Positions 18,468 to 27,028 of a DNA stretch of 64,000 nucleotides are shown here, piece by piece. Both the position numbers and the translations under genes were made by a program. Position 1 is the stretch's first letter; each line of letters starts with the position of its first letter. The DNA is from Nitrospina sp. Its GTDB lineage: Bacteria; Nitrospinota; Nitrospinia; Nitrospinales; VA-1. The notes below the pieces were generated by a model. It worked only from the letters and a program-made list of their open reading frames with translations, ran no database searches and was not told where the DNA came from. Location of the stretch: assembly GCA_018673915.1 (NCBI GenBank), contig JABHBK010000067.1, forward strand, positions 123,292 to 187,291, given 5' to 3'.

Positions 18468-19316
18468 ATGCCAAATAAAATACTCCTGAGTGCAGATATT
18501 GAATCGCTTATCGATACCACTCTGAAAGAAGATATTCAAACTGGTGATATTACCACCCGAAATATTATATCCCCGGGACAGGTTTGCGAATCGGAATTGA
18601 TTGCCAAAGAGGACTTGGTTTTATCTGGAATAGAGATTTTCAAAACCCTTTTTAGGAAACTGGATTTACAAACCCAGTTTCTCTTCGAGCCTTTTAAGGA
18701 TGGAGATAGGGTTCCGAAGGGTTCCTCCCTTCTCAAGTTTCAGTGTGATAGCATTAAAGCACTTGAGGGAGAGCGATCGGGATTAAATATTCTACAATGG
18801 TTGAGTGGTATAGCCACATTGACGCGTAAGTTTGTCGATAAGGCAAGCCCTGTTAAGGTCTTGGACACACGTAAAACTACTCCCGGTCTAAGGGTTTTTG
18901 AGAAATATGCGGTGGCCTGTGGTGGCGGCACTAATCATCGGTTTGGGTTATATGATGCCGTAATGATTAAAGACAATCATATTAAGTCTGCGGGGAGTAT
19001 TTTTCGAGCGGTGGAAAAAGTGCGTGAAGGTTTGGGTCTTAAAAGTAAAATTGAAGTAGAAACCCAGAACCTGGATGAGGTTAATGAGGCTTTGGAAAAT
19101 CATGCCCATATCATTATGCTGGACAATATGAGTATCGAAATGATCCACGAATCTATTAAGCTAATCAATGGTCAGGCAAAAGTGGAAATCAGTGGTTGTG
19201 TTACCTTGGATAGGTTGGATGAACTTTCTAAAACCGGAGCAGACTTTGTTTCTGTAGGTGCATTGACACATTCTGCTCCATCGGTGGATATTAGCATGAA
19301 TATTATTTCGGCTTAG
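18468..19316 (+). CDS. nadC: nicotinate-nucleotide pyrophosphorylase (quinolinate phosphoribosyltransferase)
   Basis: Motifs LDTRKTTPGLR, KYAVACGGGTNHRFGLYD and IMLDNM are typical of NadC. Confidence 0.92.
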   Translation: MPNKILLSADIESLIDTTLKEDIQTGDITTRNIISPGQVCESELIAKEDLVLSGIEIFKTLFRKLDLQTQFLFEPFKDGDRVPKGSSLLKFQCDSIKALEGERSGLNILQWLSGIATLTRKFVDKASPVKVLDTRKTTPGLRVFEKYAVACGGGTNHRFGLYDAVMIKDNHIKSAGSIFRAVEKVREGLGLKSKIEVETQNLDEVNEALENHAHIIMLDNMSIEMIHESIKLINGQAKVEISGCVTLDRLDELSKTGADFVSVGALTHSAPSVDISMNIISA

Positions 19317-19340: not shown

Positions 19341-19763
19341 ATGCCTTGTAAAGATACGACATCCCAAATAACTATTATTCTAGATGCGAACGATTGCCTA
19401 ATCAGCTTTGATTTTTCAAAACTAACTTGTCAGAAACCTGTGGGAGGGGGAACTGGGTTCATAGATCTTTGTCGGGGTAAACCCGTTGATGAGGTAACCC
19501 AATTGGAGTTCAGTGATTTGGTGGTTGAGTTGGGATTAACGGATTCGGAGGAACAATTTCTATTGTATCTGGAGTGGGATGCTTTGGGGGCGGCTCTCGA
19601 ACAATACCTGGGTTGCGGACATGATGTGGATCTGGAAAGGTATCAGATCGCTACGATTGCCTATGAAGCCAACCAAGTGGAAATCCGGCAAATGGTCGCG
19701 TCACCAAAGGAAATGCCAAAGCTTGTACCTTGTAGAAAGCGGGTTAAGGACAAAATTATTTAA
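19341..19763 (+). CDS. hypothetical protein (140 aa), weak IscU/NifU-like resemblance
   Basis: Intact ORF. The segment FDFSKLTCQKPVGGGTGFIDLCRGKPVDEV loosely recalls the IscU scaffold region. The assignment is weak. Confidence 0.4.
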   Translation: MPCKDTTSQITIILDANDCLISFDFSKLTCQKPVGGGTGFIDLCRGKPVDEVTQLEFSDLVVELGLTDSEEQFLLYLEWDALGAALEQYLGCGHDVDLERYQIATIAYEANQVEIRQMVASPKEMPKLVPCRKRVKDKII

Positions 19764-20406: not shown

Positions 20407-20961
20407 ATGACAAACAAATCGAAACAATTAGTTTTCCGGACTTTATTTATAATATTGAGCTTTTCTCCAGGCATTGCTTTCGGGCAATCCTCCTGCGGAG
20501 AAAAAATTCCGGCATTGGGCAATTTTGAGCTCATCTCTCAGTATTCACTAGGCCTTGCAGTAGTTGTATTGATTCTGGGCATTCTTTTCGATCATAAAAT
20601 CTGGAAAAAGGTTTTATTGGTCTTGGCATTGGTTCCTTTTGCGGGCTGGATGTATGTTAATTTTTTTGTAGATTACAACAAACTGAAAAAAGACATTTTC
20701 AACCATAATGCTGTGGCCGAAGCCACTCTGGCTAATATTGCCGAAGCCCAGGATAGGTATAAATCCGAGCAAAGCACATACATTGGCGATTTAAGAAAAA
20801 TCTATTCCCATATAGGTGGAGCAGGGGGTATGAACGAATGTGTGAAAATATTAAATGTGCAAGCAGGTGTGGATCATTGGCGCGCAGAAGCAGGGCATAT
20901 ATCGAGTCCAGACACAGTTATTTGGGATAGCCGAGCCGGAACCTCATTGAAGAAAGGTTAA
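20407..20961 (+). CDS. membrane protein with pilin-like C-terminal domain
   Basis: Signal-like N-terminus and two TM segments. A helix follows, AEATLANIAEAQDRYKSEQSTYIGDL, that resembles the type IV pilin alpha1-C region, but there is no prepilin leader. Confidence 0.4.
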   Translation: MTNKSKQLVFRTLFIILSFSPGIAFGQSSCGEKIPALGNFELISQYSLGLAVVVLILGILFDHKIWKKVLLVLALVPFAGWMYVNFFVDYNKLKKDIFNHNAVAEATLANIAEAQDRYKSEQSTYIGDLRKIYSHIGGAGGMNECVKILNVQAGVDHWRAEAGHISSPDTVIWDSRAGTSLKKG

Positions 20962-20968
20962 CAGTTTA

Positions 20969-21358
20969 TCAGTCCTTCCACCTGTTCACCATCCCGTTTA
21001 GCGAAACCATCCCTATCACATCATTAGATTCAATAACCATAGCGTAAGAAACATTGAAGTTGGTCAGAAACCTTGCGGCGTAGGGGACAGGCATGTCGGA
21101 TTTGACCGACAAAACCGGCTTGGACATGATTTCATAAATATGGGCTTCATGCAGTTTTCTGTTTTCTCCGATTACTTTTCTGGCAATATCTTTTAAGGTC
21201 ATAATCCCGTAAACATCATTTTCATCTCTGGGTTCCACCAGAATGGCATTAATGTTTTTATCTCTCATCATGTTCAATACATCGGAGACCTTCATGACTC
21301 CGTCCACTTTGGTAAAATTTGACATCATGACATCGCGAACTTTTAGAATGTCAGTCAT
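20969..21358 (-). CDS. CBS-pair domain protein
   Basis: 129 aa with two CBS-like repeats (VRDVMMSNFTKV..., IYEIMSKPVLSV...). Confidence 0.8.
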   Translation of the reverse strand: MTDILKVRDVMMSNFTKVDGVMKVSDVLNMMRDKNINAILVEPRDENDVYGIMTLKDIARKVIGENRKLHEAHIYEIMSKPVLSVKSDMPVPYAARFLTNFNVSYAMVIESNDVIGMVSLNGMVNRWKD

Positions 21359-21381
21359 TCCTATCTCCTCAAAAAACTGGG

Positions 21382-21729
21382 TTAAAAATAACGGTCTTTA
21401 GCGTCTTTTTCCATGGTAGGCATCTGACTTTCAAGCCCTATTGCCCTGTCTACTCCCAGGCTAAATGCGATTCCATTCCCATGTTCACTCAGATGGCCGG
21501 CTTCATAAATGGCCTCCATAATGTTATTGGCGATAAAATCCTCCACCAGAAAAAGAAGCATATCTTTTTGGGCTTCCATAGTCAGGCCCATAAAAGATTT
21601 TTGGGTGTGAATACCTTCTCCACGAGCATTTAGTATGGTGACCCCTGTCGCACCCGCAGTTTTTGCTGCTTCAACAACGTTGTCCTGATATTTTTCATTA
21701 ACTAATGCCAATATAACTTTAAAACGCAT
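21382..21729 (-). CDS. P-II-like signal transduction protein
   Basis: 115 aa. MRFKVILALVNEKYQDNVVEAAKTAGATGVTILNARGEG matches the P-II beta-alpha-beta start. The T-loop region is atypical. Confidence 0.7.
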   Translation of the reverse strand: MRFKVILALVNEKYQDNVVEAAKTAGATGVTILNARGEGIHTQKSFMGLTMEAQKDMLLFLVEDFIANNIMEAIYEAGHLSEHGNGIAFSLGVDRAIGLESQMPTMEKDAKDRYF

Positions 21730-21743
21730 GAGCTTCTAACTCC

Positions 21744-22553
21744 TCAAGATGGTTCATTAATCTCTTTACGTTTTGATAGTTTTTCGGTGATCATAGCATA
21801 CGCCATTACAGTGATCATAGGGAAAAGGGAGGCAAATGCGATCAACCCAAATCCATCTATCAGTGGGGAACGCCCCGGAACATTTGAGGCTAACCCGATA
21901 CCTAATGCGGCGATTAACGGAACTGTTACGGTAGAGGTGGTCACTCCGCCTGAATCATAAGCCAGGGGAATTATCTGCTTAGGGGAAAACAAAGTCTGGA
22001 TAAGTAAAAATGCGTATCCAGCAACAATGTAATAGTGCAAGGGATTGCCCATCACTATTCGATACACACCCAGGGTCACACCCGAGGCCACGCCTAACGC
22101 AACAGAGATTCGCAGACCCCAAGCTGAAATGGCCCCTGTGGTAATATCACGGGCCTTATATGCCACAGCTATCAAAGCGGGCTCTGCAAGTGTGGTGGAA
22201 AAGCCAATCAAAAAAGCAAAAATATAAGTCCACAAATAAATTCCGGGATCCATCTGGTCAGAATTTTCAAGAGTTTCTATTAAAGCAGAATCGTTACCCG
22301 CAAGAAATTTTAGATCGGTTAATTGATTGGCCATTTGTGAGCCAATGGGAAAAACACATTGCTCCAAGCCCACGATAAAAATTCCTAGCCCTAGAACAAC
22401 CATTCCAAGTCCAATTATTTTTTGTTTCAGATGAGGTATGGCTTTTCGTATTGCCACTGCCTGAAAAAAACTTAAAACAATAATAATAGGAAGAATATCC
22501 AGCAATGTGCCGGATAGAGCATCTATCAATGTGTTAAAGATTTCAGAATTCAT
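21744..22553 (-). CDS. DUF1538 family polytopic membrane protein (subunit B)
   Basis: 269 aa, paralogous to the upstream gene. Shared blocks are PIG..MA, STT.AEPAL, AYDSGG.TTST.TVPL.AALG.GLA and DGFGLIA.ASL.P. Confidence 0.7.
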   Translation of the reverse strand: MNSEIFNTLIDALSGTLLDILPIIIVLSFFQAVAIRKAIPHLKQKIIGLGMVVLGLGIFIVGLEQCVFPIGSQMANQLTDLKFLAGNDSALIETLENSDQMDPGIYLWTYIFAFLIGFSTTLAEPALIAVAYKARDITTGAISAWGLRISVALGVASGVTLGVYRIVMGNPLHYYIVAGYAFLLIQTLFSPKQIIPLAYDSGGVTTSTVTVPLIAALGIGLASNVPGRSPLIDGFGLIAFASLFPMITVMAYAMITEKLSKRKEINEPS

Positions 22554-23299
22554 TAGCTGCCCACCCCATAAACAAAAATCCCATATCCCAGAACAAATAT
22601 AATAGGGCTGAGGCTCGCCAGAGCGATCAGGCCAAATCCATCAAGCATGGGGTTTCGGCCCCGTATTGAAGTAGCTAAACCTACACCTAAAGCAGCTACC
22701 AAAGGAACGGTAATCGTGGAAGTTGTGATTCCGCCGGAGTCGTAGGCAATTCCAATGATTTCTTGAGGAGCAAAAAATGTTGTAATTACAATAAGGGTGT
22801 AGCCTCCCATAATGAACCAGATAAACGGCCACCCTTTCAAAATACGCAACACTCCTAAAGCAATAGCCAAACCTACTGACAGGGCAACCGTATAACGAAG
22901 GCCTAATACAAAACTTGCAACTGAATTCTCGGTATTTTCGATAGCACCTGCTCCTGCAGCTAACCCACCGGCTTTACCTGCGATTACTGTTAGAGCGGGT
23001 TCAGCAATGGTTGTGGAAAAACCCAGAGCGAATCCGAAAAAAATTATCCACCAGGGGTTGCCTTTGAGGGCAAATTCATTGGCCATCTTTTCGCCGATAG
23101 GGAACAGGGCACTTTCCAGACCCAATATAAAAATGAAAAGCCCCATGACAACGAGAAAAATTCCAAAAATAGTCTGGTCTAAGTGGGGAAAAGGTTTTTG
23201 AATAATGACCAACTGAAAAAATGCAATAACGACTATAATAGGAAACACGTCCATAAAAGCCGAAAAGATTTTTGAGAATAAAAGCTTGGCTATATCCAC
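22553..23299 (-). CDS. DUF1538 family polytopic membrane protein (subunit A)
   Basis: 248 aa with the same conserved blocks as subunit B. Its TAA stop overlaps the subunit B ATG (TAATG). Confidence 0.7.
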   Translation of the reverse strand: MDIAKLLFSKIFSAFMDVFPIIVVIAFFQLVIIQKPFPHLDQTIFGIFLVVMGLFIFILGLESALFPIGEKMANEFALKGNPWWIIFFGFALGFSTTIAEPALTVIAGKAGGLAAGAGAIENTENSVASFVLGLRYTVALSVGLAIALGVLRILKGWPFIWFIMGGYTLIVITTFFAPQEIIGIAYDSGGITTSTITVPLVAALGVGLATSIRGRNPMLDGFGLIALASLSPIIFVLGYGIFVYGVGS

Positions 23300-23499
23300 A
23301 GGATACTCAAATTGAATGGGATCTTTAAATTACAAGTTTCTGCAATTATATGATCCGAGGAATTTCGATTCTAATTTTAGATGCCAGTTCTAAAAACACA
23401 GATAATCTGTGAATAGAAGTATAACAAAAATATATGAAAAATCAGTTATTATAGATACATCAATTTAATAGAAAATAAAATTCAACTAAAAAGGAGTTT

Positions 23500-24042
23500 A
23501 TGAGCACTGAGGAATTGAGTCAGGATGATTTTGATCAGGACAACTTTAATAAAGAGATGCTATTAAATATTTTTTACAATAGCAAAGGAAGTATTGATTC
23601 GATCAATGCCGCTATTGATGCCAAAATATATGGAACCCGTACCAGGAGTATTACGTTTTTTGAGAAATTTGTTCGGGCACGTTTAACCCTTAATCCGAAA
23701 ATTCTCAGACTTGTCGATCTAGAAATAACCCCGTTCGAAATCATTTATCTCAGTCAATACCCAGGTTTGGAAAAAGTCGAAGAATTAGATTTAAGAAAAA
23801 ACCAATTGGGGGATAAGGGATTAGATGCTCTTTTGGTATCCGAAAAGCTAGGAAATCTTTTAAAGTTGGATTTGAGGAATAATCAAATTACCCGAAAGGG
23901 TATGGAGATTTTGGCAAAAACGGAGAAATTGGAGAGGTTAGAAAAACTGGATCTTAGGTCAAATAAAATTGGCAAGGCTTGGGAAACCAAGTTGCTATCA
24001 ATCGGGAAATTCCCAAACTTAACTTCATTGAAAACAGTTTGA
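23500..24042 (+). CDS. leucine-rich repeat protein (ribonuclease-inhibitor-type repeats)
   Basis: Repeats LDLRKNQLGDKGLDALL, LDLRNNQITRKGMEILA and LDLRSNKIGKAWETKLL have an RI-like period of 28-29 residues. No signal peptide. Confidence 0.7.
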   Translation: MSTEELSQDDFDQDNFNKEMLLNIFYNSKGSIDSINAAIDAKIYGTRTRSITFFEKFVRARLTLNPKILRLVDLEITPFEIIYLSQYPGLEKVEELDLRKNQLGDKGLDALLVSEKLGNLLKLDLRNNQITRKGMEILAKTEKLERLEKLDLRSNKIGKAWETKLLSIGKFPNLTSLKTV

Positions 24043-24077: not shown

Positions 24078-24389
24078 CTATAAAACAAGGCGATTTTTAT
24101 TTTCCCTTATTTTTTGAACTATTTTGTCAGCGATCTCATCTGCTTTTACCTGATAAGAACCATCCTGCAAAACGTTACGGAACTTGTTTACCAAGTCCTG
24201 ACGAATTTCACTTGCAATGGTCTTTATCCCACTGGCAGAAGCTTGTGTTTTGGAACTATCAGATAGCGATACACGATCAACATTTTTAGAGGATGAAGAG
24301 TCATCCTTTATGGGCTTCTTGCTTCCCTTGGTTGATCCATTGAGAGCGTCACGCCTATTTATTTTTAGTGTTGGTTCAAGTTTGTTCAT
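24078..24389 (-). CDS. flgM: anti-sigma-28 factor FlgM
   Basis: 103 aa. The N-terminal half looks disordered. The C-terminal part, SEIRQDLVNKFRNVLQDGSYQVKADEIADKIV, is typical of FlgM. Begins 9 nt after the flagellin stop. Confidence 0.8.
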   Translation of the reverse strand: MNKLEPTLKINRRDALNGSTKGSKKPIKDDSSSSKNVDRVSLSDSSKTQASASGIKTIASEIRQDLVNKFRNVLQDGSYQVKADEIADKIVQKIRENKNRLVL

Positions 24390-24398
24390 GATATTTTT

Positions 24399-25256
24399 TT
24401 ATTGTTGCAGTAGCAATAATACTCCTTCTGGAATAAGGTTAGCTTGTCCTACCATTGCTGCTGAAGACTGAACCAAAAGTTGTTGTTTGGTTAAGTTAGC
24501 TACCTCTTCGGCTATATCTGCGTCTGAGATTACTGAATTTGCAGCATATAAATTTTCAACTGACACATTTAAAGTAGCCAGAGCCCTCACTAATCTATTT
24601 TGGGTGGCTCCAATGCTTGCCCTATAGCCTAAGATGGTTTCCTGTGCCGCTTCCACTTGAGCAAGGCTATCCACTGATTTTTCAAAAGATGATGTAGATA
24701 TGCCATCAAGGCCAAGGCTTGATGTATCTGTCGATTCAATATCTACTAGTTTGTTTAAATTTAACTGACTTTCTTCATCTGAATTAAGTCCGGTTGATAT
24801 AGTTATCTGTTTAGAAGTAGTAACACTTCTACCTAATGTCCCATCTAAAAGTTTTAAACCAATAAAGTCAGTTCCGGTAGCGATTCGGTTGAACTCATCT
24901 TTAAGGGTATTTATTTCAAGTTGTAGAGTACCTCTTGTATTTTGATCAATAGCTCCACCCGCAACAGATAAAACCTCGCGCAAACGGGTTAGGATACTTG
25001 TTTGTTCGTTTAATCCGCCTTCTGCAACATTGATGAGACTAATCCCATCATTCAGGTTTTTTGTGGCTTGTCTAAGTGTCCGTGCATCGGAGCGCAACAA
25101 TTCAGAGACCGATCTTTCGGCACTATTAACGTCTTTTCCGCTTAAACGATTTCCGGAGGCAATTCTGCCTATAACCAGACCAAGGTTATCGTTGTTGATA
25201 CTCAGCCTGTTTTGGGCAACAGTAGAACTTAGATTATTGAAGATTCGTAGTGGCAT
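24399..25256 (-). CDS. fliC: flagellin (short, D0/D1-only type)
   Basis: N-terminus MPLRIFNNLSSTVAQNRLSINN. The C-terminal region ATQNRL...NLYAANSVISDADIAEEVANLTKQQLLVQSSAAMVGQAN matches the conserved flagellin termini. 285 aa. Confidence 0.92.
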   Translation of the reverse strand: MPLRIFNNLSSTVAQNRLSINNDNLGLVIGRIASGNRLSGKDVNSAERSVSELLRSDARTLRQATKNLNDGISLINVAEGGLNEQTSILTRLREVLSVAGGAIDQNTRGTLQLEINTLKDEFNRIATGTDFIGLKLLDGTLGRSVTTSKQITISTGLNSDEESQLNLNKLVDIESTDTSSLGLDGISTSSFEKSVDSLAQVEAAQETILGYRASIGATQNRLVRALATLNVSVENLYAANSVISDADIAEEVANLTKQQLLVQSSAAMVGQANLIPEGVLLLLQQ

Positions 25257-25573: not shown

Positions 25574-25786
25574 ATGATTAGGAAAGCTTTAAAGGTAGAG
25601 GGAATGACTTGTCAGCATTGTGTGCAAACGGTGAGTGAAACAGTAGGTAAGATGGCAGGGATACAAAAAGTGGAGGTAAATCTCGAACAAAAACTAGTAA
25701 ACGTAGAGTTTGAGGAATCCTTATCTACAATAGATGATATCTCTGCTCAGATTGTTGAAGCAGGATTTGAGATAGTCGAAGATTAG
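25574..25786 (+). CDS. copZ: heavy-metal-associated domain copper chaperone
   Basis: 70 aa with the GMTCQHC metal-binding motif. Confidence 0.85.
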   Translation: MIRKALKVEGMTCQHCVQTVSETVGKMAGIQKVEVNLEQKLVNVEFEESLSTIDDISAQIVEAGFEIVED

Positions 25787-25816: not shown

Positions 25817-27028
25817 CTACGAATTCATTTTGCCAATTTTAACTTGAAGAATCTTTTCATGCCCATCCCTCAAAATTTTGATGGGAACAACTTTTCCAAT
25901 AGTGGTGTCTGCAACCAGCTTTTGAAAATATTTTAAGCTGGAAATAATTTTACTATCAAACTGGATGATAATATCGCCTCGAAGCATTCCTCCAAACTGG
26001 GCTGGAGTTTTGCTCTCAACACTATTTACCAAGACTCCATCCGGTTTATCCAAGTTAAAAGTGTTTGCCAATTCTGGAGTCATATTTTGAATTCCAATTC
26101 CCAACCATCCTCTGTCTACTGAGCCCTTGTGGATCAACTGATCGCCCACTTTCAGGGCCATTTCCACTGGAATTGCAAAACCTACTCCGGAACCGATAGC
26201 CGCCACGGCTGTATTAATACCTACAATCTGTCCATCCAGGTTAATCAGGGGGCCTCCGCTGTTCCCAGGATTGATGGAAGCATCGGTTTGAATAAAGTTT
26301 TCAAAGTGGCTGATACCCAAGTCAGTGCGGCCTGTTCCACTAATCACGCCCACAGTGACTGTTCCCTCCAATCCATAGGGATTGCCAATAGCCATTACCC
26401 ATTCACCAACGTTTAATTTACTGGACTGTCCAAATTCTGGTTCCGGAAGTCTTCTCAGGGTTGAAATTTTGAGAACTGCAAGGTCGGTATAAGTATCGTA
26501 GCCGAGGAGTTTGGCAAAATATTCTTTCCCATCAGACAATTTGATAAGAATTCTATCGAGTTTTTCAACGACATGGTAATTGGTTAATATATAGCCGTCG
26601 GAATCCAGAATGATACCGGACCCCACATTTTCGACCGAAAACCTTTTACTCTTCAGGTTTTGAGCAAACCAGTTCCTGATCATTGCATACCAGGGTTTTG
26701 AGTCGCTGTTGTGAGGATCATACCAGGATGATTTTTCTATCAATTCCTTGACCTTATTCACACTGACTACAGAAGGTTTTATTGTTTTTGCATTGCGAAT
26801 GAACGCTTTCTGTAAATCCAATAAATTTTTATATTCCTGGCTATCTTCGAGGCTTCCGGGGGTCGCCTTGACTGACGAGGATGGGATAAATTCTATCCAA
26901 AAATCTTTGGTATTGAATAAGACAAAAGCAATTATCAAGCAACACCATGCAAGAGGTCTCCAGTAGTTATGATTTTTGGGTTTTGAGTCAACCATGTTTG
27001 CAACCGGTATAAATGGTCGTAATGCCAA
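25817..27028 (-). CDS. HtrA/DegP-family serine protease with PDZ domain
   Basis: N-terminal TM anchor. Catalytic triad context TNYHVV, TDLAVLK and GNSGGPL, followed by one PDZ domain. An alternative start at 26995 would reduce the overlap with ubiE. Confidence 0.88.
   Translation of the reverse strand: MALRPFIPVANMVDSKPKNHNYWRPLAWCCLIIAFVLFNTKDFWIEFIPSSSVKATPGSLEDSQEYKNLLDLQKAFIRNAKTIKPSVVSVNKVKELIEKSSWYDPHNSDSKPWYAMIRNWFAQNLKSKRFSVENVGSGIILDSDGYILTNYHVVEKLDRILIKLSDGKEYFAKLLGYDTYTDLAVLKISTLRRLPEPEFGQSSKLNVGEWVMAIGNPYGLEGTVTVGVISGTGRTDLGISHFENFIQTDASINPGNSGGPLINLDGQIVGINTAVAAIGSGVGFAIPVEMALKVGDQLIHKGSVDRGWLGIGIQNMTPELANTFNLDKPDGVLVNSVESKTPAQFGGMLRGDIIIQFDSKIISSLKYFQKLVADTTIGKVVPIKILRDGHEKILQVKIGKMNS

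Follow-up and report, generated by a model that had tools for sequence, protein, structure and literature searches.

An UmpAB-like DUF1538 membrane protein pair and its conserved PII-like and CBS-pair partner genes in Nitrospina sp.

Described systems and the Nitrospina operon

A study from 2017 describes UmpAB, the DUF1538 pair of Halomonas zhaodongensis, as a Na+(Li+,K+)/H+ antiporter (PMC5484666). Rescue of the antiporter-deficient E. coli strain KNabc requires co-expression of both genes, UmpA co-immunoprecipitates with UmpB, and everted vesicles show an optimum at pH 9, with K0.5 values of 0.26 mM for Na+, 0.46 mM for Li+ and 0.41 mM for K+ (PMC5484666). The Halomonas clone of 4.2 kb ends at umpB, and the paper is silent on PII proteins, CBS domains and an antiparallel topology (PMC5484666). 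Here, we describe an operon in a 64,000-nucleotide stretch of Nitrospina sp. DNA (contig JABHBK010000067.1; this whole stretch is called the window below), in which the genes for an UmpAB-like pair, A and B, are followed by genes for a PII-like protein and a stand-alone CBS-pair protein. Homologs place the source organism among marine, Nitrospinaceae-like Nitrospinota. A sequence-only reading of the same DNA had proposed a transporter operon with two attached sensors and had regarded the substrate and function of the DUF1538 family as not established; the latter statement is superseded by the published antiporter (PMC5484666) and by the UmpA and UmpB models of NCBIfam. We interpret the operon as encoding an UmpAB-type monovalent-cation/proton antiporter that would be gated by its dedicated PII-like and CBS-pair proteins, an interpretation to which we give an even chance.

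Transporters regulated by PII proteins are known from other families, and a 2023 review of transporter regulation names AmtB, Amt1, NrtABCD, UrtABCDE and SbtA as PII targets. In the AmtB-GlnK system, as here, a PII-family gene is conserved beside the transporter gene, and docking of the T-loop on the cytoplasmic face, by which the transporter is closed, would be expected here as well; however, Amt is an unrelated homotrimeric channel, and the operon described here contains an extra CBS protein. The cyanobacterial Na+/bicarbonate symporter SbtA, a Na+-coupled secondary transporter, likewise has a dedicated PII-like partner, SbtB, from the same operon, and is locked when SbtB binds AMP or ADP. 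Still, SbtA is a homotrimer, and neither Pfam nor Foldseek reveals similarity between DUF1538 and SbtA. In the CBS-regulated transporters MgtE, CorB/CorC, OpuA and ClC the CBS domain is fused to the transporter, while here it is a separate protein of 129 amino acids; stand-alone CBS proteins such as CBS-CP12 and DarB/CbpB likewise consist of a CBS pair, and in the protein from the window the ribose-binding motif of site 1 is preserved. No link between the DUF1538 family and PII or CBS was found in the literature mentioning DUF1538, nor was any description found of a CBS gene translationally coupled to a PII gene.

The four genes occupy positions 20969–23299 on the minus strand, in the order A-B-PII-CBS, as their open reading frames and Pfam assignments show. 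Gene A (22553–23299) has a GTG start and encodes 248 amino acids; gene B (21744–22553) starts with ATG and encodes 269. The base at 22553 is common to the stop codon of A (TAA) and the start codon of B (ATG), forming a TAATG overlap of one nucleotide. The gene for the divergent PII-family protein (21382–21729, 115 amino acids) follows after 14 nucleotides and the CBS gene (20969–21358, 129 amino acids) after another 23, with a GGAG-type Shine-Dalgarno sequence inside both gaps. The compact minus-strand operon, the TAATG overlap and the DUF1538, PII and CBS-pair assignments of the sequence-only reading were all found to be correct. An alternative start of A, the ATG at 23254 (Met16), is used by many database ortholog calls, which give proteins of 233–234 amino acids. 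We favour the longer form, because the first 15 residues, from a GTG or ATG start, are conserved in homologs and in the alignment to the UmpA profile, although the start of A (23240–23299) stays ambiguous.

Both membrane subunits match PF07556 (DUF1538) far above its gathering cut-off of 22.6 bits, A with 223 bits (E 2.8e-66) and B with 221 bits (E 1.4e-65). They are about 50% identical to each other and have in common the blocks PIG..MA, STT.AEPAL and AYDSGG.TTST.TVPL.AALG, which the sequence-only reading had listed. The pseudo-heterodimeric membrane pair proposed there is supported, and the two paralogs have different best matches: the top NCBIfam match of A is UmpA (NF041627; 308 bits versus 201 for UmpB) and that of B is UmpB (NF041628; 306 bits versus 216 for UmpA). 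The likeness to UmpAB includes the Pfam family, the gene order, the one-nucleotide TAATG overlap and these subunit-specific matches, and B, like UmpB (PMC5484666), exceeds its partner in length and ends in a hydrophilic carboxy-terminus. A difference is that the window proteins score under the NCBIfam equivalog cut-offs of 490 bits for UmpA and 500 bits for UmpB. Gammaproteobacterial orthologs also stay under these cut-offs, reaching only 361–401 bits, and when a homolog search was seeded with the most UmpA-like subunit (from Gynuella, 401 bits), only proteins of the Teredinibacter, Neiella and Halioglobus type were retrieved and none from Halomonas. We treat A and B as orthologs of UmpAB, with antiport as their putative activity. 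Assignment to a family of known substrate, a possibility that the sequence-only reading had allowed for, holds as far as the best matches go, but not to the equivalog level, and the substrate itself comes from one heterologous study.

Conservation of the cassette

Open reading frames at 80 species-level loci with A-like proteins (56–83% identity) were scored against the four window proteins. The loci are from Nitrospinota, Gammaproteobacteria (including Vibrio, Photobacterium, Shewanella, Colwellia and Moritella), Desulfobacterota (including cable bacteria), Scalindua, Bacteroidota and Latescibacterota. The full cassette, in the same order and on one strand, is present at 67 of the 80 loci and in at least five phyla, with representatives in Nitrospinota, Gammaproteobacteria, Desulfobacterota, Scalindua and Bacteroidota. 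At seven loci A, B and PII are found without CBS; five of these have more than 1 kb of unrelated genes downstream, so that the CBS gene is truly absent there. The last six loci, with A and B or A alone, are mostly contig ends or frameshifts. PII follows B at 74 of 77 loci. A four-nucleotide overlap joins PII and CBS at 41 of 67 loci and an overlap joins A and B at 38 of 77, an arrangement of translationally coupled genes. When each protein is compared with its counterpart in the window, the identities of all four vary together across loci (r = 0.74–0.86), with median values of 60% for A, 57% for B, 44% for PII and 39% for CBS, the two sensors evolving faster. At the level of sequence, the four genes are inherited as a unit.

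A more distant set was formed by the DUF1538 genes of a plasmid and chromid collection (28–34% identity, seven loci). A PII gene comes after DUF1538 in all seven, a CBS gene in none. In two Alphaproteobacteria (Chelativorans and Methylocystis) the order is A, B and a single PII, while in five Firmicutes (Vescimonas, Subdoligranulum, Paraclostridium, Peptoclostridium and Acetoanaerobium) A and B are fused into a protein of about 500 amino acids, which is directly followed by a tandem PII-PII protein of about 220 (among them L081:5503-6177, L083:5469-6137, L085:5478-6146 and L087:4756-5409). The Firmicute tandem proteins are annotated as 'P-II family nitrogen regulator', their divergent amino-terminal half being weak or missed in Pfam. 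The fusion states of transporter and PII therefore match, separate A and B going with a single PII and fused A-B with tandem PII-PII (five of the five Firmicute loci), which suggests that there is one PII domain per DUF1538 domain. Because every distant locus carries PII and none carries CBS, PII is, to judge from this distribution, the ancient core partner and CBS a later addition in one clade, to which the window copy belongs. The two sensors of the sequence-only reading are therefore unequal in standing, CBS being confined to the one clade.

A meaningless adjacency, with PII and CBS as mere passengers of co-transcription, has next to no probability in our estimate: at least five phyla keep the order, the genes are still linked at about 30% identity, and start/stop overlaps and matching fusion states recur. 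Chance adjacency is effectively excluded by such sequence comparisons. Absence of co-conservation, which would have told against the two proteins as dedicated partners of the transporter, is clearly not what was found (67 of 80 loci, and PII in seven of seven distant ones). Since they are so consistently conserved with it across bacteria, PII and CBS are very likely regulators of the transporter.

A survey of genomic context, proposed as a check in the sequence-only reading, returned no metabolic gene and no candidate target gene co-conserved beside the cassette among the 80 loci. Recurrent neighbours are nadC, ampD, ampE and a response regulator gene, along with a Kef-like gene at five loci. 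The nadC gene (quinolinate phosphoribosyltransferase; 18468–19316, plus strand) is found no more than a few kb from the cassette both in the window and at 21 of the 80 loci, and in Gammaproteobacteria the cassette is flanked by nadC and ampD-ampE. This recurrence is probably synteny rather than function, and the cassette is self-contained. The Kef-type gene, for a CPA2 cation/proton antiporter, is situated just downstream of the cassette at its five loci (L013, L050 and L053 among them), a weak hint at a common ion-homeostasis context.

The transporter might instead serve mainly as a membrane sensor or anchor, sequestering the PII-like and CBS proteins according to ion flux, so that the released proteins act elsewhere. 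Sequestration of GlnK at the membrane by AmtB is established (2023 review), and the faster evolution of PII and CBS compared to A and B would be compatible with additional, lineage-specific partners. No co-conserved target gene accompanies the cassette, though, and the matching fusion states together with the tight translational coupling indicate a closed stoichiometric complex; we consider a sensor or anchor role quite improbable.

Membrane subunits, sensor proteins and a possible gating mechanism

The AlphaFold2 model of A has a mean predicted local distance difference test score (pLDDT) of 86 and a predicted template modelling score (pTM) of 0.79. It contains two helices (residues 2–33 and 40–79), a third that is broken between residues 82–98 and 101–117, two more (residues 124–155 and 159–176), a second broken helix (residues 179–191 and 197–211) and a last helix (residues 217–244). 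Both breaks coincide with conserved motifs, STTIAEPAL and DSGGITTST. The first motif of A (STTIAEPAL, residues 95–103; 22991–23017, minus strand) holds Glu100 and the second (AYDSGGITTSTITVPL, residues 185–200; 22700–22747, minus strand) holds Asp187, both of which are conserved family-wide. The corresponding motifs of B are STTLAEPAL (residues 119–127; 22173–22199, minus strand) and AYDSGGVTTSTVTVPL (residues 198–213; 21915–21962, minus strand). Glu100, Pro101, Arg152 and Asp187, in the numbering of A, are kept down to about 30% identity. For Na+/H+ sites, one would expect carboxylates and hydroxyls to be buried where helices break, as in NhaA-type and other ion-coupled transporters. An internal repeat in A was considered, as both breaks carry the motif [ST][ST]T-x-x-x-P, and was rejected; hhalign gives a probability of 0.4% for the amino-terminal against the carboxy-terminal half. 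The model of A has no structural relative in the PDB (best Foldseek E 0.44), a PDB sequence search with a DUF1538 protein gave no match, and no homology of A or B to Amt or SbtA was detected, DUF1538 being the sole Pfam assignment.

Two features are present in B only. An acidic loop insertion (residues 80–104; 22242–22316, minus strand) is predicted to be extracellular, and a charged carboxy-terminal tail (TEKLSKRKEINEPS; 21747–21788, minus strand) is predicted to be cytoplasmic and is a candidate docking site. In the family, this tail has a mean length of 17.5 amino acids with 4.7 lysines or arginines.

When lysine and arginine residues on the two sides of the membrane are counted, A has its excess on the amino-terminal side in all 81 sequences (mean 8.0 versus 2.2 on the other side), while B has it on the side opposite to that of A in all 78 (mean 9.0 versus 3.4). 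The outcome is the same under both crossing models considered. Natural A-B fusions have halves split in charge bias in the same way, connected by a linker of 25–35 amino acids without a hydrophobic segment; an extra linker helix can be missing because each half would cross the membrane an odd number of times. On account of the opposite bias and of these fusions, we predict that A and B form an antiparallel heterodimer in the membrane. Antiparallel pairs such as those of the SMR family (EbrAB, YdgEF), Fluc/CrcB and DUF606 are likewise encoded by adjacent paralogs with opposite positive-inside bias and have natural fusions, but the DUF1538 subunits are much larger, at about 250 amino acids, with seven helical segments of which two are broken. 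No description of an antiparallel topology for the DUF1538 family was found in the literature.

The PII-like protein matches PF00543 (P-II) over residues 4–97 with 43.2 bits (cut-off 25). Among known structures, the profile of its family matches those of the GlnB/GlnK type only (best E 4.5e-9); neither SbtB nor PstA/DarA appears in this search up to E 0.01, and in a single-sequence search SbtB was aligned to the window protein with E 0.77. The T-loop region (residues 36–55; 21565–21624, minus strand) had been called atypical in the sequence-only reading, and it is indeed five residues shorter than in E. coli GlnB, with no equivalent of Ser49 or of Tyr51, the uridylylation site; in this, and in the loss of K90, R101 and R103, the protein differs from the PII partner of AmtB. 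The loop carries a family-specific motif, K-[ST]-F-[FM]-G-L, which in the window copy is KSFMGL (21583–21600, minus strand). The B-loop is HGNGIAF (21463–21483, minus strand), compared with GDGKIF in GlnB, whereby Lys90 is lost, and R101 and R103 of canonical PII are replaced with glycine and glutamate. The position of K58 is a lysine in the window protein and variable across its family. Relatives of the protein at E <= 1e-10 form at least 511 clusters (50% identity) among 1.84 billion representative proteins, and most of the best 150 clusters are tandem proteins, a few of them with three matched stretches. Two of the latter, P0386 (357 amino acids) and P0390 (376 amino acids), have three PII-matched stretches per chain, of which Pfam itself gives two; such proteins could be single-chain pseudo-trimers.

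In the CBS protein, PF00571 is matched in two stretches (E 1.3e-18). Its closest PDB match, over the full length, comes from CBS-CP12, the CBS domain of which binds AMP (5nmu; E 1.6e-18). Site 1, GIMTLKD (21188–21208, minus strand), keeps the ribose-binding pattern G-h-h-T-x-x-D, with an aspartate that at least 95% of family members have. In the window copy, site 2, GMVSLNG (20993–21013, minus strand), has no aspartate, while one is present in the family consensus.

These two proteins could also be receptors for cyclic di-AMP (c-di-AMP), as DarA/PstA and DarB/CbpB are, and would then switch a K+/Na+ antiporter within a unit of c-di-AMP-controlled cation homeostasis. Both folds are established receptor folds for this nucleotide, and c-di-AMP controls K+ and osmolyte transporters. 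The CBS protein, however, scores 16 bits against the model of the c-di-AMP receptor CbpB (NF041630), where the cut-off is 125, and the PII family profile matches no PstA/DarA structure. The cassette is moreover common in Vibrio, Photobacterium, Shewanella and other Gammaproteobacteria, which to our knowledge are generally without diadenylate cyclases. Control by c-di-AMP is thus judged highly unlikely.

In the proposed mechanism of a gated antiporter, A and B would insert in opposite orientations to form the antiparallel heterodimer. The two broken helices of each subunit would expose Ser/Thr-rich motifs with one glutamate (in AEP) and one aspartate (in [FY]DSGG), and the four carboxylates per dimer would in all likelihood make up the sites where Na+, K+ and H+ bind. 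The PII-like protein may dock on the cytoplasmic face through its short T-loop motif, and the CBS-pair protein may dock on the same face, possibly involving the charged tail of B. On an adenine-nucleotide or metabolite signal, the sensors would open or lock the transporter, by which ion and proton cycling could be matched to the energy state, by analogy with GlnK-AmtB and SbtB-SbtA. The physical binding of the PII and CBS proteins is inferred, as are their ligand, the stoichiometry and the direction in which they regulate.

Several points weigh against a gated UmpAB-type antiporter. With scores of 308 and 306 bits, A and B remain under the equivalog cut-offs, so that the same function as UmpAB is not guaranteed. 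The evidence for antiport comes from a single heterologous study by fluorescence dequenching on crude vesicles, with no purified reconstitution (PMC5484666). In E. coli, moreover, UmpAB by itself gave activity (PMC5484666), so that PII and CBS are dispensable at the basal level. PII is a trimer, and the PII-gated transporters known so far are trimeric or of the ABC type (2023 review), which makes a heterodimeric target a symmetry problem. The loss of K90, R101 and R103 means that adenine-nucleotide binding by the PII-like protein is not assured, and an AlphaFold2 model of concatenated A and B was of low confidence (pLDDT 57, pTM 0.42) and was not used.

Some of the same observations bear on another possibility, in which the physiological substrate is not Na+/K+ but a metabolite or an inorganic ion connected with the carbon, nitrogen or energy status of the cell, PII and CBS report metabolite status, for instance 2-oxoglutarate, and Na+/H+ exchange is a side or coupling activity. 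AmtB with ammonium and SbtA with bicarbonate would be precedents, and the known dedicated PII-transporter pairs carry nitrogen or carbon nutrients (2023 review). The scores under the equivalog cut-offs leave room for such a substrate, as does the fold, which, lacking a solved relative, puts no structural constraint on it; distant members are found among Firmicutes of the gut and of anaerobic habit, for which salt stress does not readily suggest itself. Against this, the sole experimental data are for cation/H+ antiport, with sub-millimolar K0.5 (PMC5484666). No metabolic gene recurs beside the cassette, the universally conserved buried carboxylates and hydroxyls would favour cations, and the PII-like protein is without K90, R101 and R103, which canonical PII uses for Mg-ATP and 2-oxoglutarate. 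A substrate other than monovalent cations and protons is, in our view, unlikely.

Operon borders and implications for the DUF1538 family

Upstream, the operon is bordered by a divergent gene for a leucine-rich repeat (LRR) protein (23500–24042) and downstream by a convergent gene (20407–20961, plus strand), which ends 7 nucleotides from the CBS stop codon; with divergent and convergent neighbours, the unit therefore comprises exactly these four genes. The 7-nucleotide gap is too small for a terminator. The convergent gene and another at 19341–19763 (plus strand) encode conserved hypothetical proteins without a Pfam match and are syntenic with the cassette in the Nitrospinota loci L001–L004.

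The operon has its leader and promoter region (23300–23499, minus strand, 200 nucleotides) in common with the LRR-protein gene on its other side. This region matches no Rfam family, and its promoter and terminator signals are not above shuffled expectation. It contains a perfect 15 base-pair palindrome, CACAGATAATCTGTG (23397–23411), followed by a T-run, which occurs as a single copy in the window (0.08 expected by chance). The palindrome was considered as a conserved operator and rejected, being found in none of 85 related loci.

Beyond the LRR-protein gene, a gene for the anti-sigma-28 factor FlgM (confirmed by Pfam) and, after it, an open reading frame that by eye we take to be flagellin-like are contained in 24078–25256 (minus strand). 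Further along are what by eye are presumably a heavy-metal-associated (CopZ-like) reading frame of 70 amino acids (25574–25786) and an HtrA-like protease (25817–27028).

The operon is real and its parts are ordinary, and its transporter family has been named before, with an activity on record. The partnership with PII and CBS, the matching fusions, the predicted inverted topology and the lack of a structural relative appear to be undescribed. More tentatively, and with more doubt than confidence, we suggest that the DUF1538 proteins are secondary transporters of a new structural class, working as antiparallel heterodimers, that their partnership with PII would be the third type known for transporters and a very widespread one, and that their role could be energy- or metabolite-gated ion cycling over simple salt tolerance.

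If so, the family would be an exception to the apparent rule that PII gates only trimeric transporters, and in one large clade the CBS protein would stand in for an additional PII domain. The PII proteins would then include a subfamily of large size and wide phylogenetic range, which has a novel loop motif, acts on a non-trimeric membrane target and has tandem and triple architectures that call for a structural explanation. The confident model without PDB relative, with its glutamate and aspartate at broken helices and a predicted inverted-topology dimer, makes the pair a defined target for cryo-electron microscopy. If PII and CBS do act as gates, what has been published on the activity of UmpAB and its pH dependence would describe the unregulated core, and the physiological role of UmpAB, cited as a marker of salt adaptation, for example in cable bacteria, may perhaps have been misjudged.

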